Made by a program: the position numbers and the translations under genes. A model generated the notes under the pieces. The model saw only the letters and a list, made by a program, of their open reading frames with translations, did not search any database and had not been told where the DNA came from. A stretch of DNA of 64,000 nucleotides from Chloroflexota bacterium (GTDB taxonomy: Bacteria > Chloroflexota > Dormibacteria > CF-121), in NCBI GenBank assembly GCA_005881215.1, contig VBDZ01000008.1:2275-66274 (forward strand), in the 5' to 3' direction. Below, piece after piece: positions 1-46,668 of the stretch. Numbering within the stretch: the stretch's first letter is position 1; each line of letters opens with the position of its first letter.

Positions 1-1816
1 GGCTGTGGAAGCGGATCTTCTTGAAAATGGTGGCGAGCGCCCGGATTTGCACTTCACCGTGGTGCACGGCCAGCTCCGCCGCCGGGCGGCTGGCGAACGT
101 CTCCAGCACTTTGATGCTGACCGCGAGGTTGGCGTCCGTGTAGTAGTCGACCTTGACCGGCCGCACGTACGCCTTCTTCTCTTCCCAATCGAGGCGATCG
201 ACATGGTATTGCATCCCTTCGTGGAGATAGATCGCCTCTTCGTGCAGAAAGACCTGAGCGGAAAACTGGTCCATCTCCCCGACCACGCTGGCGCCGCGGG
301 TGACGTCGACAATCACGACGTTGTCGGCGTTGGCACTGCGCAGGCTCACGCCTTCCGCGGGGAAGGCGTCCGCGCTCCAGTGCCAGGCTTCCCCGGCCTG
401 GTGGACGGCGCCATCCTCCTCGAGGATGCGGAGCAGCTCGGCGACGGGCGCTTCGCCAAAGGGCTCGCCCGCCGGTAGCGGCAGCTCGAAGGTCGCCGCC
501 TGCAGATGGGCGCTCAGGATCAGCAGGTTGTCGGGATCGATTAGTCCCTGCTCCGGATCGCGCCCAAGGAAGTACTCCGGATGGTTGACGAGGTACTGGT
601 CCAGCGGATTGCTGGACGCCACGTAAACCGCGGCCGCCGCCCCCCGCCGCCGCCCGGCCCGGCCGATCTGTTGCCAGGCACTGGCGATGGTGCCCGGATA
701 GCCGCAGAGGATCGCGGCATCGAGGTGGCCAATATCGATCCCCAGCTCCAGGGCATTGGTGCTGACCACGCCGCGCACCGAACCGTCGCGAAGGCCGTGC
801 TCGATCTCGCGCCGCTGCAGCGGCAGGTAGCCGCCCCGGTAGCCGCGGATGGTCCCGGTCTTGCCTAAGCGATTGGCGAGCGACTGTTGCAGGTAGCTGA
901 GCAGGATCTCGACCTGCAGACGGGTGCGGCCGAAGACGATGGTCTGCACCCCGCCCCGCAGGAACTCCTCTGCGATTCGCTGGCTCTCCAGCGTCGACGA
1001 GCGACGGATCCCGAGCTGCCGGTTAACGACCGGCGGGTTGTAGAACAGCAGCCGCTTCGGCCCGCTGGGAGCACCGTTGTCGTCGACCAGTGTCATCGAG
1101 CGGCCGGTCAGCCGTTCGGCCAGCTCCTTAGGATTGGCGATGGTCGCCGAGCAGCAGATCACGACCGGATGGCTGTCGTAGAAGGCGCACACCCGCCACA
1201 GCCGGCGCAGCACGTTCGCCAGGTGACTGCCGAACACGCCCCGGTAGGCGTGGAGCTCGTCGATGACGACGTAGCGGAGGTTGGCGAACAACTTCACCCA
1301 GCGGGTGTGATGGGGCAGCACCCCGGTGTGCAGCATGTCCGGGTTGGTGACCACGATGTGGCCGGCCTGACGAATCGCCTGGCGAGCGCTGACCGGTGTG
1401 TCGCCGTCATAGGTGTAGGTCTTGAGGTCGACCTTCATCTCGCCGACGAGGCCGTGCAGCTCGGCCAACTGGTCCTGGGCCAGCGCTTTGGTGGGAAACA
1501 GATACAGGGCGCGGGCTTCCGGATCGCGGAGCATCGCCTGGAGGACGGGCAGGTTGTAGCAGGCGGTCTTGCCGGAGGCCGTCGGGGTGACAACCACCAG
1601 GTCTTTGCCGGACAGTGCCAGACCGGTCGCCTGCGCCTGATGGGTGTAGAGCCGGGTGATGCCGCGGGCCGCCAGCGCCTGCCCCAGCCGCAGGTCGAGG
1701 CCCTCCGGGAAGCTCGCGTAGCGAGCCTGGCGAGCCGGCAGCGTGTGATCGAGGGTTAGCTGGCGGCGGAACTCATCCTGAGCGAGAAGCCGATCCAGTA
1801 CGAACTCGACCGACAT
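1..1816 (-). CDS. DExH-box helicase, YprA/MrfA-like; N-terminal ~605 codons only, gene runs off the left edge
   Basis: Hand translation of the minus strand from ATG 1816-1814 gives MSVEFVLDRLLAQDEFRRQLTLDHT.... Walker A is VVVTPTASGKTA and the DExH box is VVIDELHAYRG. It is absent from the ORF track because it has no in-window stop. The + strand ORFs listed here are shadow frames. Confidence 0.85.
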   Translation of the reverse strand, partial: MSVEFVLDRLLAQDEFRRQLTLDHTLPARQARYASFPEGLDLRLGQALAARGITRLYTHQAQATGLALSGKDLVVVTPTASGKTACYNLPVLQAMLRDPEARALYLFPTKALAQDQLAELHGLVGEMKVDLKTYTYDGDTPVSARQAIRQAGHIVVTNPDMLHTGVLPHHTRWVKLFANLRYVVIDELHAYRGVFGSHLANVLRRLWRVCAFYDSHPVVICCSATIANPKELAERLTGRSMTLVDDNGAPSGPKRLLFYNPPVVNRQLGIRRSSTLESQRIAEEFLRGGVQTIVFGRTRLQVEILLSYLQQSLANRLGKTGTIRGYRGGYLPLQRREIEHGLRDGSVRGVVSTNALELGIDIGHLDAAILCGYPGTIASAWQQIGRAGRRRGAAAAVYVASSNPLDQYLVNHPEYFLGRDPEQGLIDPDNLLILSAHLQAATFELPLPAGEPFGEAPVAELLRILEEDGAVHQAGEAWHWSADAFPAEGVSLRSANADNVVIVDVTRGASVVGEMDQFSAQVFLHEEAIYLHEGMQYHVDRLDWEEKKAYVRPVKVDYYTDANLAVSIKVLETFASRPAAELAVHHGEVQIRALATIFKKIRFHS

Positions 1817-33295: not shown

Positions 33296-35872
33296 TCAGC
33301 GGCCGTGACATTTCTTGTATTTCTTTCCGCTCCCGCACCAGCACGGATCGTTGCGGCCGAGCTTCGCGCCCGCCGGCACCGGGGTCTTCGCGCCACCGCC
33401 GTTGGGGCTCGCCGCGCGCGGCGGCGAGGCCGGCGGGTTGGCCATCGCGGGCGGCGGCGGGGGTTCCTTCGTGATTTGCACCCGGTACATCATGGAGGCG
33501 ATCTCGAACTGGATGTCGTTGAGCAGCTCCTGGAAGGCCTGGAACGCCTCGTTCTTGTACTCGACCAGCGGGTCTTTCTGGCCGAACGCCCGCAGCCCGA
33601 TGCTCTCTTTGAAGTTCTCCATCATCGTCAGGTAACTGATCCACTTGCTGTCGATCGTCCGCAACACGATCCACTTCTCCGCGCCGCGCATCACCTCCGG
33701 CGTCAGCTCGGCTTCCTTCGCCTGGTAGGCGGTGTCGGCGTACTCCATCAGGCGGTCGACCGCCGCTTCCCTGGTCTCGCCGAACTCCTCGGCCGGCATC
33801 TCGCTGAACGGTGGCAACGGGAACACTGCGCCCAGCTGCGCGTGCAGGCCTTCCAGGTCCCAGTTGCCGGGGTGCCGCGATTCGCAGTGCTCGTTGACCG
33901 CGTCCTCGACCGCCTTGCGGATCCAGCTCTGCACCTGCTCGCGGAGGTCTACCCCCTCGAGCACCCGGCGGCGCTCGCCGTAGATGATCTCGCGCTGCTT
34001 GTTCATCACGTCGTCGTATTCGACGAGATAGCGGCGGGCGTCGAAGTTATGCCCCTCGACCTTGGTTTGCGCCCCCTCGATCTGCCTCGAGACCAGGCGG
34101 GACTCGATCGGTTCATCGTCGGCGACCCGGAGCATGTTCATCATGCTTTTGATCCGCTCGCCGCCGAAGATCCGCATCAGGTCGTCGTCCAGCGCCAGGA
34201 AGAAGCGGGATGAGCCCGGGTCTCCCTGCCGGCCGGAGCGACCGCGCAGCTGGTTGTCGATCCGGCGACTCTCGTGCCGCTCGGTGCCGACGATGTGCAG
34301 GCCGCCCGCGTCCGCCACCCCGGGGCCGAGGACGATGTCGGTGCCGCGGCCGGCCATGTTGGTGGCGATGGTGACCGCGCCGGGCTGCCCGGCCTTGGCC
34401 ACGATCAGGGCTTCGCGTTCGTGCTGCTTGGCGTTCAGCACCTCGTGCGGGACGCCCCGCTTTTCCAGCAGCCGGGCGAGCCGCTCGGACTTCTCCACCG
34501 ACACGGTGCCGACCAGGACCGGCCGGCCGGTGCCGGCCGTCTCCTGGATCTCGTCGGCCACGGCCTTGAACTTGGCGTCTTCGGTCTTATAGATGAGGTC
34601 CGCGTTATCGGTGCGGATCATCGGCTTATGGGTGGGAATCACCACCACCTGCAGCTTGTAGATCTTGTCGAACTCCTCGGCCTCGGTCACGGCCGTCCCC
34701 GTCATGCCGGCCAGCTTCTTGTAGAGGCGGAAGTAGTTCTGGTAGGTGATGGTGGCCAGCGTCTGGGTTTCCTGCTGGACCTTGACGCCTTCCTTGGCCT
34801 CCACTGCCTGGTGCAGGCCGTCGGCCCAGCGGCGGCCGGGCTGCTGGCGCCCGGTGAACTCGTCGACGATCACGACCTCGCCGTCCTTGACGAGGTAATC
34901 CCGGTCGCGCTTGAAGAGCGTGTACGCCTTGAGCGCCTGGTTGATCTGGTGGGCCTCGTCCACGTGCTCCAGTTCGTAGACGTTCTTGATCCCGGTCCAG
35001 CGCTCGATCTTGGCGATCCCCTCTTCGGTGAGGGCCGCCGACTTGGTTTTCTCGTCGACGGTGTAATCCTCCGGGGCGAGCCGCGGGATCAGGCGAGCGT
35101 ACTGGTAGTACTTTTCGGTCGATTCCTGCGCCTGCCCGGAGATGATGAGCGGCGTCCGGGCCTCGTCGATCAAGATGCTGTCGACCTCGTCGACGATGGC
35201 GAAGTTCAGGCCGCGCTGCACGCACTGGGCCAGGTCGACCGCCATGTTGTCGCGCAGGTAATCGAACCCGAACTCGCTGTTGGTGCCGTAGGTGATGTCG
35301 GCCTGGTAGGCCTCCGCGCGAGTGACTGGGCGCAGGTGTTGCAGCCGGGGATCGGGATGGGTCTCGTCCAGGAAATCGGGGTCATAGCGCAACGACATCT
35401 CGTGGCCCATGACGGCGACGCTCATCCCCAACGCGTGGTAGATGGGCGCGTTCCAGCCGGCGTCGCGGCGGGCCAGGTAGTCGTTGACCGTGATCAGGTG
35501 CGCACCCTTCCCCTCCAGCGCATTCAGGTACAGCGGCAGCACGGCGACCAGGGTCTTGCCCTCGCCGGTCTTCATCTCGGCGATGTGTCCCTGGTGCAGC
35601 ACGATGCCGCCCACCAGCTGGACGTCGAAGGGCCGCAGCCCGATGGTGCGGCGGGCTGCCTCCCGGACGACAGCGAATGCCTCGACCAGCAGGTCGTCCA
35701 GGGCTTCGCCCTGCTCCAGGCGCTGGCGGAACTCCGCCGTCTTGGCCTTCAGCTCGTCGTCGTTGAGCTTCTCGAGCAGCGGCTCGAGCTCGTTGGCCTC
35801 GGCCACCCGCTCGAGGTGCCGCTTGACTTCGCGGGCATTCGGATCGCCTAAGACTTTGGTAAGGACGCTCAT
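33296..35872 (-). CDS. secA: Preprotein translocase ATPase SecA
   Basis: 858 aa: [18 protein letters not shown]..., [10 protein letters not shown], and the C-terminal zinc finger [20 protein letters not shown]. Confidence 0.97.
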
Positions 35873-35932
35873 GGACAGAGCTGAGGACTCAGCAACCAGT
35901 AAGCATACCCGGCCTCAATTGAGCCAAACGGG

Positions 35933-36493
35933 CTAGCTGAGATCGGCTTCGACCAGCCCCAGGCTCCCGTCGTGCCGGCGGTAGAGCAGGTTCAGCTCCT
36001 GGGTGTCCTCGTTGAGAAAGAGGAAGAAGGCATGGCCGAGGCGCTCCATCTCCTCGCGCGCCTGCTCCTCCGGCATCGGCTTCATCTTGAAGCGTTTGAT
36101 CTTCGCCACCCCGTTCGGCCGCAGCGCCGTTGTGGCCGGCGAGGTCGGACCGAGGGCGACCACGGCCGCCGGCTTGGCGCGGCGATGGTCCTTCAGCTTC
36201 TCCTTGTGCTGCCGGATCTGGCGATCCATCTTGTCGATCACCAGGTCCACCGCCTCGTTCATGTGGCCCGCGGACTGGACCGCCTTGAGGATGTTGCCGG
36301 TGCGGCCCGTGACGTGCACCGTCAGCTCGGCCACCTTCATGTTTTCCAGGCTCTTGTTCTTCTCCGTCCCCAACTCCATGCGCGCTTCCAGGATGTGGTC
36401 GAAATGGCGCGCCAGCTTCTCGAGCTTGGCCTGTGCGTACGCCTTGATCTGCGGATCGGCCGCGGACTTCTTGGCCTGGATCAAGATCTCCAT
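35933..36493 (-). CDS. hpf: Ribosome hibernation promoting factor (long form)
   Basis: In ORF 35933..36652. ATG 36493 is preceded by AGGAGG. It has an N-terminal YfiA/S30AE domain and a C-terminal dimerisation domain (FFLFLNEDTQELNLLYRRHDGSLGLV). Confidence 0.9.
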   Translation of the reverse strand: MEILIQAKKSAADPQIKAYAQAKLEKLARHFDHILEARMELGTEKNKSLENMKVAELTVHVTGRTGNILKAVQSAGHMNEAVDLVIDKMDRQIRQHKEKLKDHRRAKPAAVVALGPTSPATTALRPNGVAKIKRFKMKPMPEEQAREEMERLGHAFFLFLNEDTQELNLLYRRHDGSLGLVEADLS

Positions 36494-36581
36494 GGTGCCT
36501 CCTGTGAGATCTTTGTGGACAGGAGTATAGATCAGCGGCTCGCGCACGGGGACGAATCCGTTCGCGCGCGCCAGATAGCAG

Positions 36582-37718
36582 CTAGGCGCGTTCGGTTGCC
36601 CGGCGATCCGGGAAGACCCGCGCCAGCTCTGGCGGGATGGGCACGCCGGCACCGAACAGCTTGTCCATGATGTGCGGCCGGATGCCGGTCGGCCGGAAGA
36701 CGCCGGTCATCTGGCCGTCTTTTCCGACGCCGTGCGACTCGTAGATGAAGATCTCCTGCATGGTGATCGTGTCGCCCTCCATGCCGGTGATTTCGGTGAT
36801 GCTGGTCACCTTGCGCTGCCCATCGCGCATGCGGGATAGCTGCACGATCAGGTCGATGGCGGAGGCGGTCTGCTGCCGGATCGCCTTGGCGGGCAGGTCG
36901 ATCCCGGCCATCAGCACCATGGTCTCCAGCCGCGACAGGGCGTCGCGAGTGGTGTTCGCATGCAGGGTGGTGATCGAGCCGTCGTGGCCGGTGTTCATCG
37001 CCTGCAGCATGTCCAGCGCCTCGCCGGCACGACACTCGCCGACGACGATCCGGTCCGGACGCATCCGCAGGGCGTTGATGACCAGGTCGCGAATGGCGAC
37101 CTTGTTCTCACCGTTGAGGTCGGGTGGGCGGGACTCCATCCGGCAGACGTGCTCCTGGTGGAGCTGCAGCTCGGCGGCATCTTCGATGGTGACGATCCGC
37201 TCGTCGGGAGGGATGAACGAAGAACAGACGTTGAGGAGCGTGGTCTTGCCGGTACCCGTTCCGCCCGAGATCAGCAGGTTGGAGCGAGCCATGACGCAGG
37301 CCTTGAGGAAGCCGACCGCCTCGTGCGTAATGGTGCCGAAGTTCACGAGGTCCTCAGCCTGATAGGGATCCCGGGAGAACTTTCGGATCGTCAGCATCGG
37401 GCCGTCCAGCGCAATCGGCGAAATCACGGCGTTGACGCGGGACCCGTCGAGCAGCCGGGCGTCAACCATCGGGGTGCGGAAGTCGATGCGCCGGCCGACG
37501 GCGGAGACGATAAAGTCGATCACCCGCAGCAGGTGATTCTCGTCGTCGAACTTGCGGTCGGTCAGCAGGATCTTGCCGTTGCGCTCGACGTAGATGTTTT
37601 CATGGCCGTTGACCATGACTTCGGTCAAGCTCTCGTCCAGGACCAGGTCGCGAATCGGTCCCAGCGCCTCGTAATAACGGGCTAGTTCGTCCTGCGAAAC
37701 CTCGGACGCGTTGACCAT
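36582..37718 (-). CDS. CpaF/TadA-family secretion ATPase, second copy (short N-terminus)
   Basis: In ORF 36582..37820, starting at ATG 37718. Walker A GGTGTGKTT, IVTIEDAAEL, ALRMRPDRIVVGECRAGEA, AMNTGHDGS. It is clearly paralogous to 40695..42116. Confidence 0.85.
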   Translation of the reverse strand: MVNASEVSQDELARYYEALGPIRDLVLDESLTEVMVNGHENIYVERNGKILLTDRKFDDENHLLRVIDFIVSAVGRRIDFRTPMVDARLLDGSRVNAVISPIALDGPMLTIRKFSRDPYQAEDLVNFGTITHEAVGFLKACVMARSNLLISGGTGTGKTTLLNVCSSFIPPDERIVTIEDAAELQLHQEHVCRMESRPPDLNGENKVAIRDLVINALRMRPDRIVVGECRAGEALDMLQAMNTGHDGSITTLHANTTRDALSRLETMVLMAGIDLPAKAIRQQTASAIDLIVQLSRMRDGQRKVTSITEITGMEGDTITMQEIFIYESHGVGKDGQMTGVFRPTGIRPHIMDKLFGAGVPIPPELARVFPDRRATERA

Positions 37719-37746
37719 GTAAGCCACAATCCCCCAAAACAGAGAT

Positions 37747-38400
37747 TCAGGGACACGTCGATTGTCCCGGCAATGTAACGGCGAGTGCCGGCAAAGTTTG
37801 CGCCCTGGCGAGAACCACAAAAGCCCCGATCGAGCCGCCTGCCCGGGCCACCGCTTCGGCGGCCGCCGTCAGGGTGGCGCCCGTGGTGCAGACGTCATCG
37901 ACCAGCGCCAGGCCCCTCGGCGGCGGCGCGGTGGCCGCCCACTCGAAGGCGCCCAGCATGTTGACCTGCCGCTCGGGCTGGCTCAGCCCCACCTGGGCGG
38001 GTGTGGGGCGAAGCCGGGTGAGTCCGCCGACCAGCGGGACAGCCAGCCGGCCGGCCAGGGCGCGGGCGAGCCGCTCCGCCTGGTTGAAGCCCCGCTCGCG
38101 CCGTCGCTGGGGATGGAGCGGGATGTAGGTGAGCGCGGCGAGCTCGAGGTTGCTGGCTGCCGTGGCACGCCAGAGCAGCTCGCCGAGCACGCTGGCGAGC
38201 CCCGGCCGCGGCCGGTACTTGTAGGTATGGATCGCCTGCTGCAGCGGGCCGTCGAGCCGGCCGGCCGCGACCAGCGGCATGCCGTTCAGGGTGGCCAGCG
38301 GCTGGGGCTGGACTCGGGCGGCGCACGCGTCGCACCAGGCCACGCCCTCACGGCCGCATCCGCCGCAGCGCGGCGGAAAGATCAGGTCGAGGAAATTCAC
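37747..38400 (-). CDS. comF: ComF family protein (phosphoribosyltransferase-like, ComFC type)
   Basis: 217 aa, GTG start. N-terminal Cys cluster PPRCGGCG...WCDACA and PRTase motif LVDDVCTTGATL. Confidence 0.85.
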   Translation of the reverse strand: MNFLDLIFPPRCGGCGREGVAWCDACAARVQPQPLATLNGMPLVAAGRLDGPLQQAIHTYKYRPRPGLASVLGELLWRATAASNLELAALTYIPLHPQRRRERGFNQAERLARALAGRLAVPLVGGLTRLRPTPAQVGLSQPERQVNMLGAFEWAATAPPPRGLALVDDVCTTGATLTAAAEAVARAGGSIGAFVVLARAQTLPALAVTLPGQSTCP

Positions 38401-38745
38401 CTAGGCCGCGACCTGCAGGTGGTCCCCGGGCTTGATCGCATGCCGGCGGATGGTGCCAACCGGCAGCTCGGCGCACTTGTCCGCCCGCCAAACGAAGGGC
38501 ACCATCCCGATCCACGGCAGCAGCCGCTCATAGGTCTTGACCACGACGTTCTTCTTGTCGACGAAGACGGCGTCGATCGGAAAGCGCATGAACATCATGT
38601 GAATGCCACTGCAGCCATGGATCAGCAGCCCACCGTTCTCGGGCAACCTTGCCCGTCCCATCAACCCCAGGCCGGAGCTGATGAAGTTGCGGGCCTCCTC
38701 GAGCGGCTCCGCGACCACCGTCCCGTCCGGTTTTGTCAGTCGCAA
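38401..38745 (-). CDS. DUF192 domain protein
   Basis: 114 aa, TTG start with a GGAGA RBS. GLMGR...GLLI...IHMMFMRFPIDAVFVD is typical of DUF192 (COG1430). Confidence 0.7.
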   Translation of the reverse strand: MRLTKPDGTVVAEPLEEARNFISSGLGLMGRARLPENGGLLIHGCSGIHMMFMRFPIDAVFVDKKNVVVKTYERLLPWIGMVPFVWRADKCAELPVGTIRRHAIKPGDHLQVAA

Positions 38746-38810
38746 AACTCTTTCTCCGTATTGATTGTATCGCGTTGAGCGGCCCGTGGGCCGCCGCCCT
38801 TGGCCCGGAT

Positions 38811-39737
38811 TTATTTGTGCTGGAAGGTGTGGATGATGATGATGACGGCCGGGCCCATCAGCACGATGAACAGGGTCGGGAAGATGCAGCCGATCATCGG
38901 GAAGAGCATCTTCAGCGGGGCCTGGGCGGCCTTCTCTTCCGCGCGCTGCCGGCGGCGGCGCCGCATCTCTTCCGATTGGATGCGCAGCACCTTGGCGATC
39001 CCGACGCCGAGCTGTTCGGATTGGATCAGCGCCTGGATGAAGGTGTGGAGCTCCTCGACGCCGGAACGGCGCCCCATGTCATCGAGGGCCTCCAGCCGCG
39101 GCCGGCCCAGCCGGATCTCGTTGAGCACCTGGGCAAACTCATCCGACAGCGCGTTCTTGAATTTTTCGACCAGGCGGCCGATGGCGGCATCGAAGCCGAG
39201 CCCGGCCTCAACCGAGATGGTCAGCAGGTCGAGCGCGTTCGGCAGCGCGAGCCGAAGCTCGGTCTGCCGTCCCTTGATCCGGTTGTTGAGCAGCACATCG
39301 GGGAGGAAACGGCCGCCCACAAACCCCAGGCCGGCGGCGGCCAGCTTGAGCGCAAACGTGGTCGGAAACACCAAGCCACCAAACCAGAAGGCGACCAGGG
39401 CGACGACCAGCCCGGCGATCACCTTGAACACCTCGAAGCCGTTGACCGTGAGGCCGTATGGCCGGCCCGCCAGGTTCAGCTTGTTCTGGACCACCAATTG
39501 CCGGTTCTTCGCCATCCGGGCGGTGAGCAAGCTGCCCAGCCGCTCCAGCGCCGGCTTGATGAACCGCTCGCTGAACGGTAGAGAGAGCTCGATCTCGTCG
39601 AGGGTGAGGTTGTGATCGCGGTACTGCGCCAGCCGTTCGGCGATCAGGTCCTGGCGCGGCTTGGCGGTCACCGCCTGAACGGCGATGAAGATACCGCTGA
39701 AGGCGAGGAAGGCGAAGACGATGGTGAAAATGCTCAT
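38811..39737 (-). CDS. tadC: Tad pilus platform protein TadC (T2SS F-domain)
   Basis: 308 aa. N-terminal TM, a cytoplasmic T2SSF domain and C-terminal TMs. Confidence 0.85.
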   Translation of the reverse strand: MSIFTIVFAFLAFSGIFIAVQAVTAKPRQDLIAERLAQYRDHNLTLDEIELSLPFSERFIKPALERLGSLLTARMAKNRQLVVQNKLNLAGRPYGLTVNGFEVFKVIAGLVVALVAFWFGGLVFPTTFALKLAAAGLGFVGGRFLPDVLLNNRIKGRQTELRLALPNALDLLTISVEAGLGFDAAIGRLVEKFKNALSDEFAQVLNEIRLGRPRLEALDDMGRRSGVEELHTFIQALIQSEQLGVGIAKVLRIQSEEMRRRRRQRAEEKAAQAPLKMLFPMIGCIFPTLFIVLMGPAVIIIIHTFQHK

Positions 39738-39740
39738 TCG

Positions 39741-40694
39741 CTACACCTGGATGTTCGTGATTTTCGAGATGATGCCGTATCCGATCGCGATCGAGACCAG
39801 GCCCATGCCGATCAGGATGTAGCCAAGCCATTCGTGAAAGAGCGGTGTGATGTAGCTCGGCGAAATGAAGGTCAGGATGAGGGCCAGCGCAAAGGGCAGG
39901 CCGGTGATGATGTACCCGGAGGCCCGCGCTTGCGCGGTCAGGGTGCGGATTTCACCCTGGATCCGGATGCGCTCGCGAATGGTGAAGGCGATCGTGTCGA
40001 GGATTTCCGCCAGGTTGCCACCGACCACCCGGTGGATCTGCACGGCGGTGACCATCAGGTCGAAGTCTTCGCTCTCGATCCGCTTGACCATGTGGGCCAG
40101 CGAGTCGTCAACCGAAACGCCCAGGTTCATTTCCCGCACCGCCCGGCTGAACTCGTCGGCCATCGGGGGCGACGAGCTCTTGGCGATGGTTGCCATCGCC
40201 TGGGCGAAGGAGTAACCGGCCTTCAGCGCGTTGGAGAGCAGGACGATGGTGTCGCCCAGCTGGTTGTTGAACGCCTTCAGCCGGCGCCGCTGCCGGAACT
40301 TGAGGAAGAAGCCCGGGGCAAAGTAGCCGACCGGTATCCCGATCAGCGCCAGCAGCGGGTTATGGAAGCGCAAGAAGAGAATCGCCATCAGGAGCACGAT
40401 CAGGCCGACGATCAGCATCACGTACTCCGAGACGCGGAGCTTGAGGTCGGCCTTGGCCAGCTCCTCCGTCAGCCTCGAGGTACGCCCGCCCTTGTTACGC
40501 GTCAGGCTCTTGTTGAATCCCTCCAGGAAGCCTTCGAAGACACCGCCCTTCTTGGCGGTCGGGCTGGCGGCCGGGTTGTAGCCGTCCATGTGCAGGTCGA
40601 CCTCGGTCGCCGAGTTCCGGTTGGACATGAGCGCCATCACCACGATCAGCGCCCCGATGGCGGCCATCGCCGCGAAGATCAGCTGGATCGACAC
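39741..40694 (-). CDS. tadB: Tad pilus platform protein TadB (T2SS F-domain)
   Basis: 317 aa. GTG start abutting the cpaF stop. T2SSF domain (LSNALKAGYSFAQAM). Confidence 0.85.
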   Translation of the reverse strand: MSIQLIFAAMAAIGALIVVMALMSNRNSATEVDLHMDGYNPAASPTAKKGGVFEGFLEGFNKSLTRNKGGRTSRLTEELAKADLKLRVSEYVMLIVGLIVLLMAILFLRFHNPLLALIGIPVGYFAPGFFLKFRQRRRLKAFNNQLGDTIVLLSNALKAGYSFAQAMATIAKSSSPPMADEFSRAVREMNLGVSVDDSLAHMVKRIESEDFDLMVTAVQIHRVVGGNLAEILDTIAFTIRERIRIQGEIRTLTAQARASGYIITGLPFALALILTFISPSYITPLFHEWLGYILIGMGLVSIAIGYGIISKITNIQV

Positions 40695-42116
40695 TTACTT
40701 GCCTCCTTTTCCGGCAGGATCCGGCACCGGCGTGAACAATTCCTTGGCCACGCCCTCGCCCGACGACTGCAGATGGTCGAAATACTTGGGCATGATGCCG
40801 GTGGCCGTGAAGTAGCCCTGCACCTTACCGTCTTCGCTGACGCCGGTCTGCTTGAACACGAAAATGTCCTGCACCTTTACCTGGTCGCCGTGCAGACCGA
40901 GCACCTCGCTGACGGCGATGATCTTTCGCGTTCCGTCCCGCAAGCGGCTCTGCTGCACGATGACGTTTATGGCGGACGAGATCTGCTCCCGGATCGCCCG
41001 GGAGGGCAGTTCTGCCCCCGCCATCAACACCAACGTTTCCAGGCGGTTCAAACTGTCACGCGGCGAGTTCGCGTGGATAGTCGTCAACGAACCGTCATGA
41101 CCCGTATTCATCGCCTGCAGCATGTCCAGTGCCTCGCCGCCGCGGCACTCCCCGACCACGATTCGATCTGGCCGCATCCGCAGCGCGTTGACCACCAGGT
41201 CCCGGATCGCGATCCGGCCGCGGCCCTCGACGGTGGCGGGTCGTGACTCAAGTGTTACAACGTGCTCCTGGTTCAGCTGGAGCTCCGCGGCATCCTCCAC
41301 CGTCACCACCCGCTCCTCTTCGGGGATGAAGCTGGACAGGACGTTGAGCGTGGTTGTCTTCCCGGAGCCCGTCCCGCCGGAGACCAGCATGTTCAGGCGC
41401 GACCGGACGCAGGCCCGCACAAATTGGGCCATGGGGTCCGTCAGGGTGCCGAACTTGATCAGGTCGTTGATCTTGTAGGGGTCCTTGGAGAACTTTCGGA
41501 TGGTCAGGATGGGCCCGTTGAGCGCCAGCGGCGGGATGATGACGTTGACGCGGGAGCCGTCCTTGAGCCGGGCGTCGACCATGGGCGAGCTCTCGTCGAT
41601 CCGCCGGCCGATGGTCGAGACGATCCGGTCGATCACCCGGCGAAGCTGGTCCTCGCTCTCGAACTGCACGTTGGAGAGCGTCAGCTTGCCCTTGTGCTCG
41701 ATGAAGATCTGGTCCGGCCCGTTGACCATGACCTCGGTGATGCTGGCGTCGGCGAGGAGTGCCTCGATCGGACCCAGCCCGAGGAAGTCGTTGAGGACCG
41801 AGTCGAGCAGGCGTTGTTTCTCCGGCTTGGTCAGCGAGAGTCCCATCTCGGCGACCACCACGTTCAGGGCCTCGGTGATCCGGGTCGCCCGCTGTTCCTT
41901 GTCCTCGTCCTCGGCGTCGTCGATATTCTCGACCAGGCGCGCCTGCAGCCGGTTCTTGACCCGTTCGGCCTGCTGCTCGAAGGGGGTTCGGACACGAGCG
42001 GCGGTGGAGCTCTGGCGGGCCGCCTGGCCGGCGCCGGCCTGCGGGACATAGGCGCCTTCGGGGGGTGCGTTGGGGTCGGGCGCTTGCTGCTTCTGGACGC
42101 GATCGAGCAGCGACAC
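40695..42116 (-). CDS. cpaF: Tad pilus secretion ATPase CpaF/TadA
   Basis: In ORF 40695..42185 (TTG). I prefer GTG 42116 (VSLLDRVQKQQ), which is preceded by GAGGTGG plus 7 nt. Walker A GGTGSGKTT, VVTVEDAAEL, AMNTGHDGS. Confidence 0.9.
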   Translation of the reverse strand: MSLLDRVQKQQAPDPNAPPEGAYVPQAGAGQAARQSSTAARVRTPFEQQAERVKNRLQARLVENIDDAEDEDKEQRATRITEALNVVVAEMGLSLTKPEKQRLLDSVLNDFLGLGPIEALLADASITEVMVNGPDQIFIEHKGKLTLSNVQFESEDQLRRVIDRIVSTIGRRIDESSPMVDARLKDGSRVNVIIPPLALNGPILTIRKFSKDPYKINDLIKFGTLTDPMAQFVRACVRSRLNMLVSGGTGSGKTTTLNVLSSFIPEEERVVTVEDAAELQLNQEHVVTLESRPATVEGRGRIAIRDLVVNALRMRPDRIVVGECRGGEALDMLQAMNTGHDGSLTTIHANSPRDSLNRLETLVLMAGAELPSRAIREQISSAINVIVQQSRLRDGTRKIIAVSEVLGLHGDQVKVQDIFVFKQTGVSEDGKVQGYFTATGIMPKYFDHLQSSGEGVAKELFTPVPDPAGKGGK

Positions 42117-42215
42117 GGCTACGCCACCTCTTCGTTCGTCACCGATAGCGACCTGCCAGCCACGGTACGTGGTACCAGTAGGCAAGCGACAACCGCGCGA
42201 GTCATCTCAACCTTC

Positions 42216-43484
42216 CTAACGGCGGGCGAACAGACCCTTGCGGGATTTCTTCTCGGCGGGCTCGGCCTCTGCCGCCGCCGGGGCCGTCGGGAGCAGCTTG
42301 GCGACCAGCTCTCGAATCCGCTGGCTGATCTCGGACTCCGGGTGGGTGGTCACGAACGGGTTGCCGCGGTTGATCGAGTTGATCACCAGCTTCGGGTCGT
42401 TGGGGATCTGGCCCGCGATCGGAAAGCGCAAGTTGGCCTCCACGCTCTCTTTGTTGAACTCCGAGTGGGCATCTGACTTGTTCAGCAGCAGCACCACCCG
42501 ATCGGGCGAGATGGACAGCGAGTCGAAGATCTTGAGCGCGAGCTTGGTGTTTTTGATCGCCGGGATACTGAGCGAGGTGACGACCACCACCTTGTCGGCG
42601 TGGTCCAGCACCTCCAGGTTGATCTCGCCCAGGTGCGCGCTGCTGTCGACGATGATGTAGTCGAACATCTTCCGCAGCTCGCCGAAGATGCGGCGAACGT
42701 GCTCCACGGTCACCAGGTCGGCCAGCTCCGGGCTGATCGGGGTGAGCAGCACCTTGATCCCGTAGGGCCCGTCCACCATGATCTCCCGGATGAATTCCGG
42801 GTCCATGTGGTCGATGTTTTCGATCAGGTCGGTGATCCCCTGGGAGTGGTCGAGGTTGAGCAGCACCCCGATGTCGCCGAATTGCAGGTCGAGATCGACC
42901 AGGGCGACCTTCCCCTTGGTTTCGTTGGCCATCGAGACCGCCAGGTTGGCCGCGATCAGCGACTTGCCGACGCCGCCTTTGCCGGAGTAGAAGAAAAAGA
43001 CCTGGCCATGCTCGGCGCGCCTGCCGGCCGGGGTCCCGCCGTCGGGCGGGGCGGCCGCCGCCACCGGGGTGCCGCCGGTGGTCTTGGCCAGGAAGGACTC
43101 TTTCTTCTGCTCCAGCTGATAAACCCGGCGGATGCTGGCGATCAGCTCGTCGCCGGAAAAGGGCTTGATCAGGAACTCGCGGGCGCCGGACTGCATCGCC
43201 CGCCGCAGGTAGTCACGCTCCCCCTGGACCGACATGATGATGACCGGGGAGCCCGGCACCTCCTGGGCGAGCGTCTCGGTCGCCTGGATGCCGTCCATGA
43301 TCGGCATGTTGACGTCCATCAGGACGATGTCCGGGGCCAGCTTCTTGGCCTGCTCCACTCCTTCCTTGCCGTTGACGGCGGTCGCCATCACCTGGATGTC
43401 GGGCTCGAAGGAGAGGAGCTTCTGGAGGTTGTCCAGGGTGCTGGTGATGTCGTCAACGATCAGGACTTTGATTGGCTCGGTCAT
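42216..43484 (-). CDS. cpaE: Response-regulator receiver domain fused to CpaE/TadZ-type ParA/MinD ATPase
   Basis: 422 aa. REC domain with D11 D12, D57 (IVLMDVNMP), S85 and K107 (FLIKP). It is followed by a deviant Walker A, SGKGGVGKS. Confidence 0.88.
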   Translation of the reverse strand: MTEPIKVLIVDDITSTLDNLQKLLSFEPDIQVMATAVNGKEGVEQAKKLAPDIVLMDVNMPIMDGIQATETLAQEVPGSPVIIMSVQGERDYLRRAMQSGAREFLIKPFSGDELIASIRRVYQLEQKKESFLAKTTGGTPVAAAAPPDGGTPAGRRAEHGQVFFFYSGKGGVGKSLIAANLAVSMANETKGKVALVDLDLQFGDIGVLLNLDHSQGITDLIENIDHMDPEFIREIMVDGPYGIKVLLTPISPELADLVTVEHVRRIFGELRKMFDYIIVDSSAHLGEINLEVLDHADKVVVVTSLSIPAIKNTKLALKIFDSLSISPDRVVLLLNKSDAHSEFNKESVEANLRFPIAGQIPNDPKLVINSINRGNPFVTTHPESEISQRIRELVAKLLPTAPAAAEAEPAEKKSRKGLFARR

Positions 43485-43508
43485 CCAGTCATCTCGTTAA
43501 AGACAGCA

Positions 43509-43536
43509 CCCCGCGAAATCTTCCGATTTCGCGGGG
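43509..43536 (-). other. Perfect 11-bp intercistronic hairpin between cpaB and REC-cpaE
   Basis: ccccgcgaaat (43509-43519), loop cttccg, atttcgcgggg (43526-43536). It lies 29 nt after the cpaB stop and 24 nt before the cpaE ATG. Confidence 0.6.
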
Positions 43537-43565
43537 AGCCTGTCAACGTTTTTCTGTGGTCGGGT

Positions 43566-44309
43566 CTAGCGCAGGCTGTAGGTCCTGCTAAAGCTGTCCC
43601 CGGTCGTCGACGAGGTGTCACTATCGACGTGGTCGTAGTCGTCCACCGCTTTGAGGACGTATTTGTAGTTCGTGTTGTCCAGCAACCACTTGAGGTCCTG
43701 CGCCTGCTGGAGCGTGACGATCACGGTTAGGCTGGACGAGATGCCACGGGCATTCGGTCCGCCGGCCGGTCCAACCCGGATGATGTGCAGGTTGGTGAAG
43801 GTCACCTTGGTCAGGGACTTCCCATTGACGGTGGAGGTCACGAGAACGTCAATCCGGTCGTCCGGCTGGATGTAACCGCCGGCGCCGACCAGCTCTCCGG
43901 TCGGGATCTGCATCGCGACCTGGCCCGGTGGGATCTTCAGGAACGCCTGCTTGGCGGGCACCACGCTGCCCGCGTCGCTCACGATGTCGGTGTCGATAAC
44001 CGCCGCGTTGGCATGGATCGGAATCGCCGCGTACTTCCCGATGACGAGATTCTTGTCCCGGAACGCGAAGGGCGGCACGGTGTCCTCCGAGAACTTCTGA
44101 ATGGTCACCAGGGCCGCCGTGATCTGCGTCGATGCCGCGATCTCCTGGGTGGCCACCACGACGTCCGTGTTCTTCGCCCCTCCGCCGATCGCTGTCGTGC
44201 CACCCGAGGTGCGGCCAACGAGCAAGGCCCCTCCGAACGCCACGATGGCGAGGAAAACACCGAAGATCAAGAGGATGCGGTTGCTCTTCGGCTTTACCTC
44301 AGTCGCCAA
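43566..44309 (-). CDS. cpaB: Flp pilus assembly protein CpaB/RcpC
   Basis: 247 aa, TTG start with a GGAGGTG RBS. N-terminal TM, a SAF-like segment (VVVATQEIAASTQI) and an RcpC-type domain (PGQVAMQIPTGELVGAGGYIQPDDRIDVLV). Confidence 0.85.
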   Translation of the reverse strand: MATEVKPKSNRILLIFGVFLAIVAFGGALLVGRTSGGTTAIGGGAKNTDVVVATQEIAASTQITAALVTIQKFSEDTVPPFAFRDKNLVIGKYAAIPIHANAAVIDTDIVSDAGSVVPAKQAFLKIPPGQVAMQIPTGELVGAGGYIQPDDRIDVLVTSTVNGKSLTKVTFTNLHIIRVGPAGGPNARGISSSLTVIVTLQQAQDLKWLLDNTNYKYVLKAVDDYDHVDSDTSSTTGDSFSRTYSLR

Positions 44310-44403
44310 TCAACTCACCTCCTGAAATTCGGCGCCAGCGCCCAAAGCGAGACGCTCTTTCGGCTGATGTATCTAGAAAGGCACGCGCTTCCTTGCGCAC
44401 TGG

Positions 44404-44435
44404 AAAAAGAAGAGAGCGGGCCGTTGCCCGCTCTC
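44404..44435 (-). terminator. Rho-independent terminator/attenuator downstream of flp
   Basis: The minus strand reads GAGAGCGGGC-AACG-GCCCGCTCTC (10-bp perfect stem, 44435-44412) followed by TTCTTTTT (44411-44404). It starts 26 nt after the flp stop. Confidence 0.85.
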
Positions 44436-44460
44436 CTGTTTTGCTCCCAGAAGGTGTCCC

Positions 44461-44640
44461 TTACTGGCCGAGACCGCCCGAGATGTTGCAGAAGACGTTC
44501 TTGACCTGGTTGCCGAGCACGATCAGGACGACGATGACGACCACCGCGATCAAGACGAGAATGAGGGCGTACTCAACCATACCCTGCCCTTCCTCACGGT
44601 TGAGCAGTTCGCGGAGGCGCAGATAAAGGTTGGTCAACAT
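44461..44640 (-). CDS. flp: Flp family type IVb pilin (59 aa; below the ORF-track cutoff)
   Basis: Hand translation gives MLTNLYLRLRELLNREEGQG/MVEYALILVLIAVVVIVVLIVLGNQVKNVFCNISGGLGQ. It has the Flp motif G/xVEYALI. An AGGAGG RBS lies 8 nt upstream, and a strong terminator lies downstream. Confidence 0.9.
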   Translation of the reverse strand: MLTNLYLRLRELLNREEGQGMVEYALILVLIAVVVIVVLIVLGNQVKNVFCNISGGLGQ

Positions 44641-44817
44641 GCTAATTCACCTCCTTTGCGAGTAGATCGAACGGCCCCAGTTTCACACCGGCCCGAATTG
44701 AAGACAACGGACAGCCCGCCAAAGAACGGCGAAGATGTTTTGACGCCTTCGTAACAGCCGTCACTGTCTTACAGCGATCGTTACGAGTGGGCAGCAAAGC
44801 GCCGCGGACCCGAGCGG

Positions 44818-45903
44818 CTAGCGCTTGCTGAGTGGAACCTCGACCTTGACTTCGGTGCCTCGGCCCGGTTGACTGCGGATCTCGAGGGTGCCCTTTTCCA
44901 GCTCGGCGCGTTCCCGCATGCTGAGCAAACCGAGATTCTTGTTCTTGTGGAGGTTGGCCTCGGTGCGGGCCACGTCGAAACCCTGCCCGTCGTCCTTGAT
45001 CACCACCGAGACCCGGGACGGCTGCAGGTTCATGGTGACCTCGGCCATCTTGGCGCGCGCGTGTTTGTGCACGTTGGTCAGGGCCTCCTGAACGATGCGG
45101 AACAGCACCCCCTCGGTGTTCCCCGGCAGCCGGCGCTCCTGGCCCACCACGTTGAAGCGGGTGGCCAGACCGTAGCGGTCGCCGTACTCCTTGATGAACT
45201 TTCGCAGCGTCGGCACCAGCCCGAGGTCGTCGAGCGTCATCGGCCGCAGGTCGAAGATCAGCTGCCGGGTCTCTTCCAGGGCATTGCGCACACTGTTCTT
45301 GAACTCGGCCAGCTCGGTCACCAGCTGTTTGGGGTTTCGATCGAGCAGCCGCTCCAGGATCTCCGCCTGGAGGACCAGGTTGGCCATCGATTGCGCCGGT
45401 CCGTCATGCATGTCGCGGGCGATCCGCATCCGCTCTTCTTCGATGATCTGGAACACCTGACGGGAGGCATCACGAAACTGCTTGTCGCCGTCGGCCTGAG
45501 CCGGATGCCCGCCGTTCTCCCCGTACATCCGCTGCAGGTCGGCGAGGATCTGGCTGGCGGAGCGGAGAAACTGCCCCTGGTCCTTGAGCTCGGCGCGCCG
45601 AGCCGCCAGCGCCTCGTACTCGAACTCGGCCCGCTCCACGCTCAGCTGCGTTTCCCGGATGTTGGCAAAGGTCGCCTGCACCTCGGACGGCGAGAACTGC
45701 TTGAGGTTGTTCAGCAGGTGCTTTTCCACCACCCGCGACTCCTCCGCTTGCTCGCGCACCTGTTCGAGCGACGCCTCGAGCTCGCGCGACTTGGCTTCGG
45801 CAGTCTCCAGTTCGGCCTCGACTGTCTGCAGGCGGGCCGTGACCGATTGGTGAATCAGCACGAATGGATCGAAGATCTCATCCGTGGCCTGGATCGCACT
45901 CAT
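44818..45903 (-). CDS. Soluble DegS-like histidine kinase (HisKA_3 + HATPase_c), no adjacent DNA-binding response regulator
   Basis: 361 aa. No TM segment, an N-terminal coiled coil, an H-box (ARDMHDGPAQSMANL) and an ATPase domain (EALTNVHKHA, DDGQGF, GLLSMRERA). Confidence 0.88.
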   Translation of the reverse strand: MSAIQATDEIFDPFVLIHQSVTARLQTVEAELETAEAKSRELEASLEQVREQAEESRVVEKHLLNNLKQFSPSEVQATFANIRETQLSVERAEFEYEALAARRAELKDQGQFLRSASQILADLQRMYGENGGHPAQADGDKQFRDASRQVFQIIEEERMRIARDMHDGPAQSMANLVLQAEILERLLDRNPKQLVTELAEFKNSVRNALEETRQLIFDLRPMTLDDLGLVPTLRKFIKEYGDRYGLATRFNVVGQERRLPGNTEGVLFRIVQEALTNVHKHARAKMAEVTMNLQPSRVSVVIKDDGQGFDVARTEANLHKNKNLGLLSMRERAELEKGTLEIRSQPGRGTEVKVEVPLSKR

Positions 45904-46002
45904 AGTGGGCTACGGAACGGCCCCCGCGCCAAGCTGGAGCCCCGTTTGGCGGCCCCATGATAGCAGGAAAATCGCCGAATTCACGCTGAATCTCCGTAGC
46001 AG

Positions 46003-46668
46003 ATGAGCGAACGAGCGTCCTTCATCCTGGGACGGGCGCTGCCTCTGGGCGTGTTCGGCTTCCTGGTCGCCATCCAGGGCGAGCTCGCCTATGCCGGCGT
46101 TCAGCAGGCCTTCGCCGGGGTGATGGACCGGGCGCAGGTCATGTATCTCCTCAACCGTGTCCTGACCATCGCCTTCTTCGCCTTCCTGCTCGGCATCTAC
46201 ACCATTCGCCGCAAGGCGGTGGCCCACGACCACAATCCGGTGGCCGTCGCCGCAGCCCTGGTGGGCAGCTTCATCCTGTACGGGATTTTCCTGATCCCCG
46301 GCCAATCGCGCAGCACCGAGCTTCCGGTGCTCGCGTCGAGTGACATGCTGCTCGCCTGCGGCATGATCTGGGCTCTCTATTCGCTGACCTACCTGCGCAA
46401 CCGCTTCAGCATCGTGCCTGAGGCGCGCGGTCTGGTCACCACCGGTCCCTACCAGTTCGTGCGACATCCGATCTACCTCGGTGAGATCATCGCCGGCTTC
46501 GGTTTGGTGCTGCCCACCGTGTTCAGCCTGCATCTCCTGGTGTTCGCCGTCTTCCTGTGCGCCCAGGTGGCCCGCACCTATTTCGAGGAGCGGATGATGC
46601 GCACCGTCTATCCCTCATACGAGGCGTATGCCCGGCACACCTGCCGGCTCATCCCCTTCATCGTCTAG
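46003..46668 (+). CDS. Isoprenylcysteine carboxyl methyltransferase (ICMT)/phospholipid methyltransferase family membrane protein
   Basis: 221 aa, polytopic. Family motif GPYQFVRHPIYLGEII...EERMM. Confidence 0.8.
   Translation: MSERASFILGRALPLGVFGFLVAIQGELAYAGVQQAFAGVMDRAQVMYLLNRVLTIAFFAFLLGIYTIRRKAVAHDHNPVAVAAALVGSFILYGIFLIPGQSRSTELPVLASSDMLLACGMIWALYSLTYLRNRFSIVPEARGLVTTGPYQFVRHPIYLGEIIAGFGLVLPTVFSLHLLVFAVFLCAQVARTYFEERMMRTVYPSYEAYARHTCRLIPFIV

Follow-up and report, generated by a model that had tools for sequence, protein, structure and literature searches.

A 64,000-nucleotide window of DNA from an uncultured soil bacterium, a Dormibacterial member of the Chloroflexota (assembly GCA_005881215.1, contig VBDZ01000008.1, positions 2,275 to 66,274 of the forward strand) carries on its minus strand a set of Tad/Flp pilus genes in which the ATPase CpaE begins with a canonical receiver domain (REC) and a soluble, DegS-like histidine kinase is encoded directly upstream of the prepilin gene flp. 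From comparisons of sequence and gene order, direct phosphotransfer from the kinase to the CpaE receiver emerges as the best-supported reading, and we hold it to be probable on balance. We also judge it somewhat probable that the locus is a monoderm-type Tad/Flp pilus operon that has retained half of an ancestral DegS–DegU module; the only receiver left in the Dormibacterial operon is the canonical, NarL-like one, flexibly linked to the MinD/ParA-type CpaE. We regard kinase and CpaE as a real, conserved and unstudied module, for which the kinase-to-CpaE interpretation, put forward in a preliminary description of this DNA, is plausible and, as to DegU ancestry, incomplete.

The source genome is a metagenome-assembled genome (MAG) of 2.79 Mb in 255 contigs, 88% complete, and the window lies within the contig labeled C204. 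Relatives came from Dormibacteria families labeled f1–f5 and included one single-contig genome of 2.49 Mb (G129). Co-occurrence was counted in 121 Dormibacteria genomes, each at least 85% complete, and a REC-CpaE profile search retrieved 80 loci for comparison of gene order.

CpaE begins with a canonical receiver domain

The translated REC-cpaE gene matches Pfam Response_reg at residues 7–118 with 97.7 bits, compared to a cut-off of 30.2, and the ParA/AAA_31/CbiA ATPase families at residues 162–397, with a deviant Walker A motif (GKGGVGKS) starting at residue 168. A residue look-up found D11, D12, D57 (in IVLMDVNMP), S85, F104, K107, and P108 (in FLIKPF) all present, confirming the full catalytic set (D11, D12, D57, S85, and K107) that the preliminary description had assigned to this receiver. 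The AlphaFold2 (AF2) model, with a mean predicted local distance difference test score (pLDDT) of 77, consists of a (βα)5 receiver, a disordered linker at residues 135–157, and a MinD-like domain; within the receiver, pLDDT is 84–94 at residues 1–80 and 66–77 at residues 81–120. In Foldseek comparisons, the receiver model superposed on the receivers of Spo0A, NarL, and LiaR (template-modeling score, TM, ~0.9; root-mean-square deviation ~1.1 Å), the ATPase domain matched 3EA0 (TMt 0.91) and also MinD, FlhG, and FleN, and the best two-domain match was 3FKQ, the TadZ protein of E. rectale (E 1e-13, 17% sequence identity). Sequence searches with the receiver matched the phosphorylatable proteins CheY, Spo0A, NarL, VraR, and DesR at ~1e-18.

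By operon slot and two-domain plan, the protein is a TadZ/CpaE with a canonical instead of an atypical receiver. Close homologues are named 'pilus assembly protein CpaE' by JGI; the match to NCBIfam TIGR03815 (CpaE_hom_Actino) scored 52.7 bits, under the 154.45 cut-off, and no TadZ_N match was listed for CpaE in the Pfam scan. More than 4,400 database proteins are related at E ≤ 1e-20, under the names 'response regulator', 'MinD/ParA family protein', and 'pilus assembly protein CpaE', and all 120 of those listed bear Response_reg.

The receiver is the more strongly conserved part of the protein. Between Dormibacteria families, receiver identity is 76–84% compared to 53–58% for the ATPase part, and within the genus the ratio of nonsynonymous to synonymous substitution rates (dN/dS) is 0.04–0.13 for the receiver and 0.26–0.37 for CpaB. 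The catalytic set DD-D-S/T-K is intact in 77 of 98 CpaE-linked receivers from two phyla. In a tree built from all 56 over-cut-off receivers of the source genome together with the locus proteins, CpaE receivers of both phyla form one clade (support 100/94). Its sister group (100/98) is the NarL-type receivers, the class normally served by HisKA_3 kinases.

The linker varies in length by family, taking the whole protein from 422 to ~560 amino acids (aa). At four f4 loci (L045–L048, in genomes G030, G027, G033, and G039), it is an expanded Ala/Pro/Glu-rich tract, and the G033 and G039 proteins have the Walker A lysine replaced (GKGGVGTS). Amphipathic tails of the KGLFGKLFG type end most REC-CpaE homologues (L097–L147), with KGLFARR, KRKGLFGKLFG, GKGILGRLFG, and KGLLGGIFGKR as examples. 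We take the CpaE tail to resemble the membrane-targeting sequence of MinD, and we know of no description of such a MinD-like C-terminal tail for TadZ.

The kinase beside flp resembles DegS

The kinase matches Pfam HisKA_3 at residues 157–224 (69 bits) and HATPase_c at residues 267–359 (50 bits), and carries an H-box (MHDGPAQS, with H165), an N-box (EALTNVHKHA), and a G1 box (DDGQGFD). Hydropathy analysis showed no hydrophobic segment (highest Kyte-Doolittle score over any 19-mer, 0.85), and the N-terminus is a coiled coil. Translation, Pfam matches, and hydropathy thus bear out the earlier account of a soluble HisKA_3 kinase that is encoded immediately 5' of flp and lacks an adjacent LuxR-type regulator gene.

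The Pfam DegS family (PF05384) gave no match for this kinase even at E ≤ 10, and one relative reached only E 0.51. A profile of the kinase N-domain nevertheless aligned by hhalign with the N-domains of Bacillota DegS proteins at 94.4% probability (E 9e-8), and in a tree of kinase cores a clade with 90/90 support contained the tad kinase, the Bacillota DegS kinases, and a membrane-bound paralogue encoded on contig C147 of the source genome. Taken together, the N-domain profile match, the core clade, and the locus order in Bacillota (below) suggest that the Dormibacterial kinase is a diverged DegS and that its ancestral neighbor is a DegU-like transcription factor.

Kinase orthologues were found in 79 of the 121 Dormibacteria genomes. 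The core formed by the dimerization and histidine-phosphotransfer (DHp) domain and the catalytic ATP-binding (CA) domain has a within-genus dN/dS of 0.03–0.05, the lowest of the operon. Because a kinase without a partner should decay, this strong purifying selection counts toward a retained partner.

Gene order in Dormibacteria and Bacillota

A divergent PEMT/ICMT-type methyltransferase gene followed by kinase, flp, cpaB, REC-cpaE, cpaF, tadB, tadC, and a DUF192-like gene is an order that recurs in families f1, f4, and f5 and in parts of f2 and f3; flp lies directly 3' of the kinase gene in relatives as well. None of the Dormibacteria loci examined, from five families, has a LuxR-type regulator gene between kinase and flp, and at two of them, in one lineage (L074, 7607–8626 on the minus strand, and L128), an opposite-strand cation-diffusion-facilitator gene sits there. 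Rearranged f2 tad loci hold up to three REC-CpaE paralogues (with DED/DGD pockets) and another single receiver adjoining the methyltransferase gene. Where the f2 kinase is separated from the tad genes, it lies between a HAD hydrolase gene and a divergent single-domain receiver gene with a GT-C-like membrane protein gene; this receiver is of an unrelated type.

At 23 Bacillota/Clostridia loci, including those of Thermincola, Syntrophaceticus schinkii, Clostridium cavendishii (DSM 21758), Dethiobacter, and Limnochordia, the order is kinase, NarL/LuxR-type regulator, one or more flp genes, and then, further on, cpaB, REC-cpaE, cpaF, tadB, tadC, and DUF192. A DegU-like regulator and a canonical REC-CpaE thus occur together at 23 of the 24 kinase-bearing Bacillota loci, and the three locus kinases that were scanned are all bona fide DegS proteins (PF05384, E 1e-39 to 1e-56). 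At the Bacillota locus L127, DegS is followed directly by flp, without DegU, and the canonical REC-CpaE is retained, which we read as a second, independent loss of DegU. By this comparison, the DegU-like partner appears to have been lost in Dormibacteria, and kinase-to-CpaE wiring there would be a derived, or merely apparent, state.

These results divide the proposal that the kinase acts on CpaE instead of a transcription factor. An intact and constrained kinase, synteny in five families, a NarL-like receiver, and the failure to find DegU all speak for it in Dormibacteria, whereas the Bacillota orthologue has a DegU-like partner at 23 of 24 loci. For the family as a whole, this comes close to the conserved pairing with a LuxR-type regulator that the preliminary description had named as evidence against its own proposal; direct kinase-to-CpaE signaling is thus not the basic design of the module.

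Kinase and receiver co-occur, and receiver decay follows kinase absence

Among the 121 Dormibacteria genomes, 78 have both kinase and REC-CpaE, one has the kinase only, seven have CpaE only, and 35 have neither. Co-occurrence of the two, which had been suggested as a check, therefore holds in 78 of 79 kinase-bearing genomes, and of the seven genomes counted as CpaE-only, at least one does encode a diverged kinase adjoining flp.

Loss of the phosphorylation site went with absence of the kinase. Clearly degenerate CpaE receivers (D57Y, K107M/I/T, D12K, or S85A) were seen only at loci whose available sequence shows no kinase, although at two of these the upstream flank is too short for a decision. 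The comparison outside Dormibacteria covered loci with 6 kb or more of upstream sequence and those where a shorter flank already revealed a kinase. Here the receiver was canonical in 24 of 24 loci with a kinase compared to three of six without one, the remaining three bearing changes such as D57Y, K107M, or D12K; these counts are not phylogenetically independent. Covariation of the kinase DHp helix with receiver helix α1 gave no usable signal, the DHp helix being nearly invariant (HDGPAQSMANLVL…) and the lineages effectively two.

Candidate partners elsewhere in the genome

A Pfam scan found no GerE/LuxR domain anywhere on contig C204. The source genome encodes 12 HisKA_3 kinases, of which nine lie within ~2 kb of a NarL-type regulator gene (eight have it directly downstream, and the pair on C122 is convergent) and one adjoins a single receiver. 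No regulator gene stands beside the tad kinase or beside the kinase on C5, which runs off the start of its contig.

In a full-length tree, a clade of 22 DegU-like regulators (81/73, 84% of bootstrap trees) excluded all nine NarL regulators of the source genome, which thus yielded no DegU orthologue. The regulator on C251 grouped loosely with the DegU-like proteins in a REC-only tree, fell outside their clade in the full-length tree, and has its own adjacent kinase. The closest paralogue of the tad kinase, the C147 kinase, was rejected as an equivalent, being membrane-bound, with a different H-box region and a regulator of its own.

The NarL regulator on C169 was likewise rejected as the missing partner, because better assemblies show its orthologue immediately downstream of a HisKA_3 kinase of 600–750 aa. 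This regulator gene lies at the end of a 2.4-kb contig (1–2418), with a third gene for a CpaF/TadA-like ATPase (1–1353, minus strand) after it; on C47 (3715–5418), a HisKA_3 kinase gene is cut at the contig end. C47 and C169 are probably one locus split by assembly, with the kinase at the end of C47 pairing with the C169 regulator, and their content points to a further Tad-like system, one served by a two-component pair of its own.

An orphan NarL-like regulator of the type encoded on C21 (1–723, minus strand) was absent from all 12 f5 genomes with the kinase and found in f3 lineages without it, and was set aside. Its LuxR-type helix-turn-helix (HTH) domain is divergent and under the Pfam threshold; orthologues, patchy in the class, are 440–500 aa long with an extra C-terminal region. 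The single-domain receiver beside the separated f2 kinase has no orthologue in the source genome, where its best matches are OmpR-type receivers at ~40% identity, and was also rejected.

In the single-contig genome G129, five of six HisKA_3 kinases adjoin a REC-LuxR regulator and the sixth is the tad kinase, which is the sole orphan histidine kinase of that genome, all others being paired with a regulator. Two further LuxR-domain proteins lack a receiver, one being an HD-domain fusion and the other a short solo HTH protein, and the unpaired receivers are REC-CpaE, one OmpR-type regulator, and two CheY-like proteins. This inventory leaves no unlinked LuxR-type partner visible. A PP2C/SpoIIE-type phosphatase fused to an RsbW-like HATPase_c domain (L173, C1:1834500–1837500) is of the partner-switching type and not a histidine kinase. 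The genome-wide search for a NarL- or DegU-type alternative that had been proposed for this kinase thus turned up no DegU-type and no orphan canonical NarL-type regulator in either the source genome or G129.

Direct transfer weighed against its alternatives

Several findings weigh against direct transfer from kinase to CpaE. Three loci without a nearby kinase (L126, L130, and L144) retain a canonical receiver, so another phosphodonor must exist at least there. Helix α1, which is the main docking and specificity determinant of receivers, reads DD..eTr.ni..LL in REC-CpaE (with KPF later) compared to DDH.liR.GL..iL (with KD) in DegU-like proteins, and with this difference the sequence gives no support for one kinase serving both. 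Many f2 genomes (L049, L050, L162, and L075–L087) place the kinase 33–47 kb from the tad locus, on the same contig. Few independent evolutionary events stand behind the co-occurrence, and the same holds for the correlation of receiver decay with kinase absence. Finally, the MAG is only 88% complete, and regulators whose HTH domain scores under the Pfam threshold could escape.

Some of these points favor an alternative in which the kinase signals to an unlinked regulator that controls flp/tad transcription (an orphan OmpR-type or CheY-like protein, an atypical NarL-like protein, or, by cross-talk, a paired NarL protein), while CpaE receives phosphate from another kinase or from acetyl phosphate. 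We consider this unlikely, yet deserving of serious attention. The conserved partner of the kinase family in Bacillota is, after all, a DegU-like transcription factor, and α1 of REC-CpaE is unlike that of DegU; orphan receivers exist in G129 and orphan NarL regulators in genome G006, in f2 genomes the kinase, at a distance from the tad genes, neighbors a single-domain receiver, and the three kinase-less loci have kept a canonical CpaE receiver. However, no DegU orthologue was found in the source genome, where, as in G129, the NarL regulators are all paired with their own kinases, and the orphan receivers of G129 belong to the OmpR or CheY classes, with which HisKA_3 kinases do not usually pair. 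REC-CpaE, unlike the C21-type regulator, co-occurs with the kinase, and the nearest paralogous kinase (C147) is membrane-bound and differs in its H-box region.

It is improbable, in our judgment, that the CpaE receiver is never phosphorylated and serves as an interaction or dimerization module whose acidic pocket is kept for folding or metal binding only. The retention of the catalytic residues and of the F104 switch residue in 77 of 98 receivers from two phyla is hard to square with such a role, as are the low dN/dS of the receiver and an identity above that of the ATPase domain. Decay of the site, moreover, was confined to loci lacking the kinase, as would be expected were the site in use at kinase-bearing loci. 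This alternative draws on precedent, as the N-domains of characterized TadZ/CpaE proteins work without phosphorylation (bioRxiv 10.64898/2026.07.08.737194), and some Bacillota CpaE homologues tolerate degenerate receivers.

That the kinase is a mere neighbor sharing a promoter region with flp, with no functional link to the pilus, is more improbable still: a terminator-like hairpin and spacers of 177 and 151 bp do part the genes, and the f2 kinase can lie apart from the tad genes, but kinase–flp adjacency is kept in two phyla, co-occurrence holds in 78 of 79 kinase-bearing genomes, and f2 copies that have become separated from the tad genes are still found on the same contig as these, at a near-constant 33–47 kb.

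Other features of the locus

In order, the minus-strand string comprises the HisKA_3 kinase, flp, cpaB, REC-cpaE, cpaF, tadB, tadC, a DUF192-like gene, comFC, a second TadA-like ATPase gene, hpf, and secA (Table 1). Spacers of 177 and 151 bp, together with a terminator-like hairpin, part the kinase, flp, and cpaB genes, and the hairpin after flp would fit with attenuation on passing from the pilin gene to the machinery genes. Upstream of the kinase and divergent from it, the PEMT/ICMT-type methyltransferase gene heads a glycosyltransferase cluster. A minus-strand open reading frame at 45910–46533, upstream of the kinase, was rejected as a hidden regulator, being low-complexity nonsense that overlaps this plus-strand gene.

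Table 1. Features of the Tad/Flp pilus locus and its borders, in window coordinates.
Feature	Position	Strand	Basis or detail
PEMT/ICMT-type methyltransferase gene, divergent	46003..46668	+	upstream boundary of kinase gene
Soluble DegS-like histidine kinase gene, 361 aa	44818..45903	-	Pfam HisKA_3 and HATPase_c
flp prepilin gene, 59 aa	44461..44640	-	Pfam Flp_Fap, E 4e-9
Terminator-like hairpin 3' of flp, 12-bp stem then CTTTTT	44410..44437	-	consensus match only
cpaB/rcpC-like gene, 247 aa, TTG start	43566..44309	-	Pfam RcpC and SAF; NCBIfam TIGR03177, 87.6 bits, above cut-off
Hairpin in cpaB/REC-cpaE spacer, 12-bp stem, weak T tract	43509..43536	-	terminator-like
REC-cpaE gene, 422 aa	42216..43484	-	translation and Pfam
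CpaE receiver domain, aa 1–125	43110..43484	-	D11, D12, D57, S85, F104, K107, P108
CpaE linker, disordered, Ala/Pro-rich, aa 126–158	43011..43109	-	pLDDT <50 at 135–157
CpaE ParA/MinD-type ATPase domain, aa 159–409, Walker A GKGGVGKS	42258..43010	-	Pfam ParA/AAA_31/CbiA
CpaE basic amphipathic C-terminal tail, …KKSRKGLFARR	42219..42257	-	recurs in homologues
cpaF/tadA secretion ATPase gene, 496 aa	40695..42185	-	Pfam T2SSE, 230.8 bits; NCBIfam TIGR03819, 331.9 bits, under the 373 cut-off
tadB gene (T2SSF)	39741..40694	-	Pfam
tadC gene (T2SSF)	38811..39737	-	Pfam
Downstream module: DUF192-like gene (38401–38745), comFC (37747–38400), second TadA-like ATPase gene (36582–37820)	36582..38745	-	Pfam/NCBIfam and synteny

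A tblastn search of the source genome with the Peptidase_A24 protein of a Bacillota tad locus found no prepilin peptidase at E ≤ 1e-3; the pilin-processing enzyme is either too diverged for detection or encoded in the missing 12% of the genome. TadE-like matches were found on contigs C27, C127, and C187.

A DUF192-like gene lies 3' of tadC at both Dormibacteria and Bacillota loci. In Dormibacteria, it is followed by comFC, the second TadA-like ATPase gene, hpf, and secA; at several Bacillota loci, comFC stands a few kb further on. We take the order DegS-like kinase … comFC … hpf … secA (33296–45903) to recall the degS-degU-degV-comFA-FC … hpf-secA region of B. subtilis, and the Bacillus deg region might equal a locus of the Dormibacterial type from which the tad genes have been deleted.

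A proposed model for phospho-control of pilus assembly

If the kinase does act on CpaE, a cytoplasmic cue sensed through the coiled-coil domain would lead it to autophosphorylate on H165, and the phosphoryl group would pass to D57 of CpaE. The phosphorylated receiver would then dimerize, as receivers of the NarL family do, and the receiver dimer would favor formation of the ATP-sandwich dimer by the MinD-like domain, as well as attachment to the membrane by way of the amphipathic C-terminal tail. Recruitment or licensing of CpaF and the TadBC platform could follow, which would turn pilus assembly on at the post-translational level. In Clostridia, the kinase probably has two outputs, transcription through DegU and assembly through REC-CpaE; in Dormibacteria, the CpaE branch alone would remain. 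More broadly, and tentatively, a two-component system may act directly and post-translationally on Tad pilus assembly, in parallel with DegU in Clostridia and as its sole output in Dormibacterota, and the DegS–DegU system of Bacilli may be a remnant of an ancestral module for Tad-pilus control; we incline slightly against rather than toward accepting this whole scheme.

TadZ/CpaE is viewed as serving in positioning, with a receiver-like domain that is no more than a dead relic. In the set studied here, a live phospho-acceptor site is found in 77 of 98 receivers from at least two phyla, nearly always embedded with a DegS-type kinase. A literature search found no paper on phosphorylatable TadZ/CpaE proteins, on REC-CpaE fusions, or on a link between DegSU and tad genes. 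If direct transfer occurs, Tad pili would be added to the short list of surface machines whose assembly is gated directly by two-component phosphorylation of a MinD/ParA-family ATPase, response regulators would gain a new class of output, and DegS–DegU would gain an evolutionary origin. The Dormibacterial version, without DegU, would offer a natural experiment in which the CpaE branch stands alone.

Comparison with known systems

Like Aggregatibacter TadZ, Caulobacter CpaE, and E. rectale TadZ (3FKQ), the protein described here is encoded in the slot between cpaB/rcpC and cpaF/tadA and joins a receiver-like N-domain to a ParA/MinD-type ATPase with a deviant Walker A motif. Characterized TadZ/CpaE proteins carry an 'atypical receiver domain' (bioRxiv 10.64898/2026.07.08.737194), in agreement with the statement in the preliminary description that their receivers are degenerate. 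Unlike those non-phosphorylatable receivers, the one studied here has every phospho-acceptor residue, and the protein further differs in its long disordered linker and its MinD-like C-terminal tail; its identity to 3FKQ is just 17%. The kinase, for its part, is like B. subtilis DegS in being soluble, ~360–390 aa long, and built from a coiled-coil N-domain followed by HisKA_3 and HATPase_c domains; unlike DegS of the DegS–DegU pair, it falls under the Pfam DegS threshold and has no adjacent degU gene.

Two-component control of pili is known in other forms. In P. aeruginosa, PprA–PprB is encoded beside flp-tad-rcp and governs the Flp pilus; PprB is a transcription factor, and TadZ there is not known to be a phospho-acceptor, whereas the candidate acceptor in Dormibacteria is the assembly ATPase itself. 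PilG and PilH of the Chp system are CheY-like receivers that are fed by a CheA-type kinase and control the motor of type IVa pili post-translationally, and MinD, FlhG, and FleN use ATP-dependent dimerization and an amphipathic tail for membrane binding and the positioning of machines. Unlike in these systems, where receiver and ATPase are separate proteins, the two are fused in REC-CpaE, and the candidate phosphodonor is a kinase of the DegS type.

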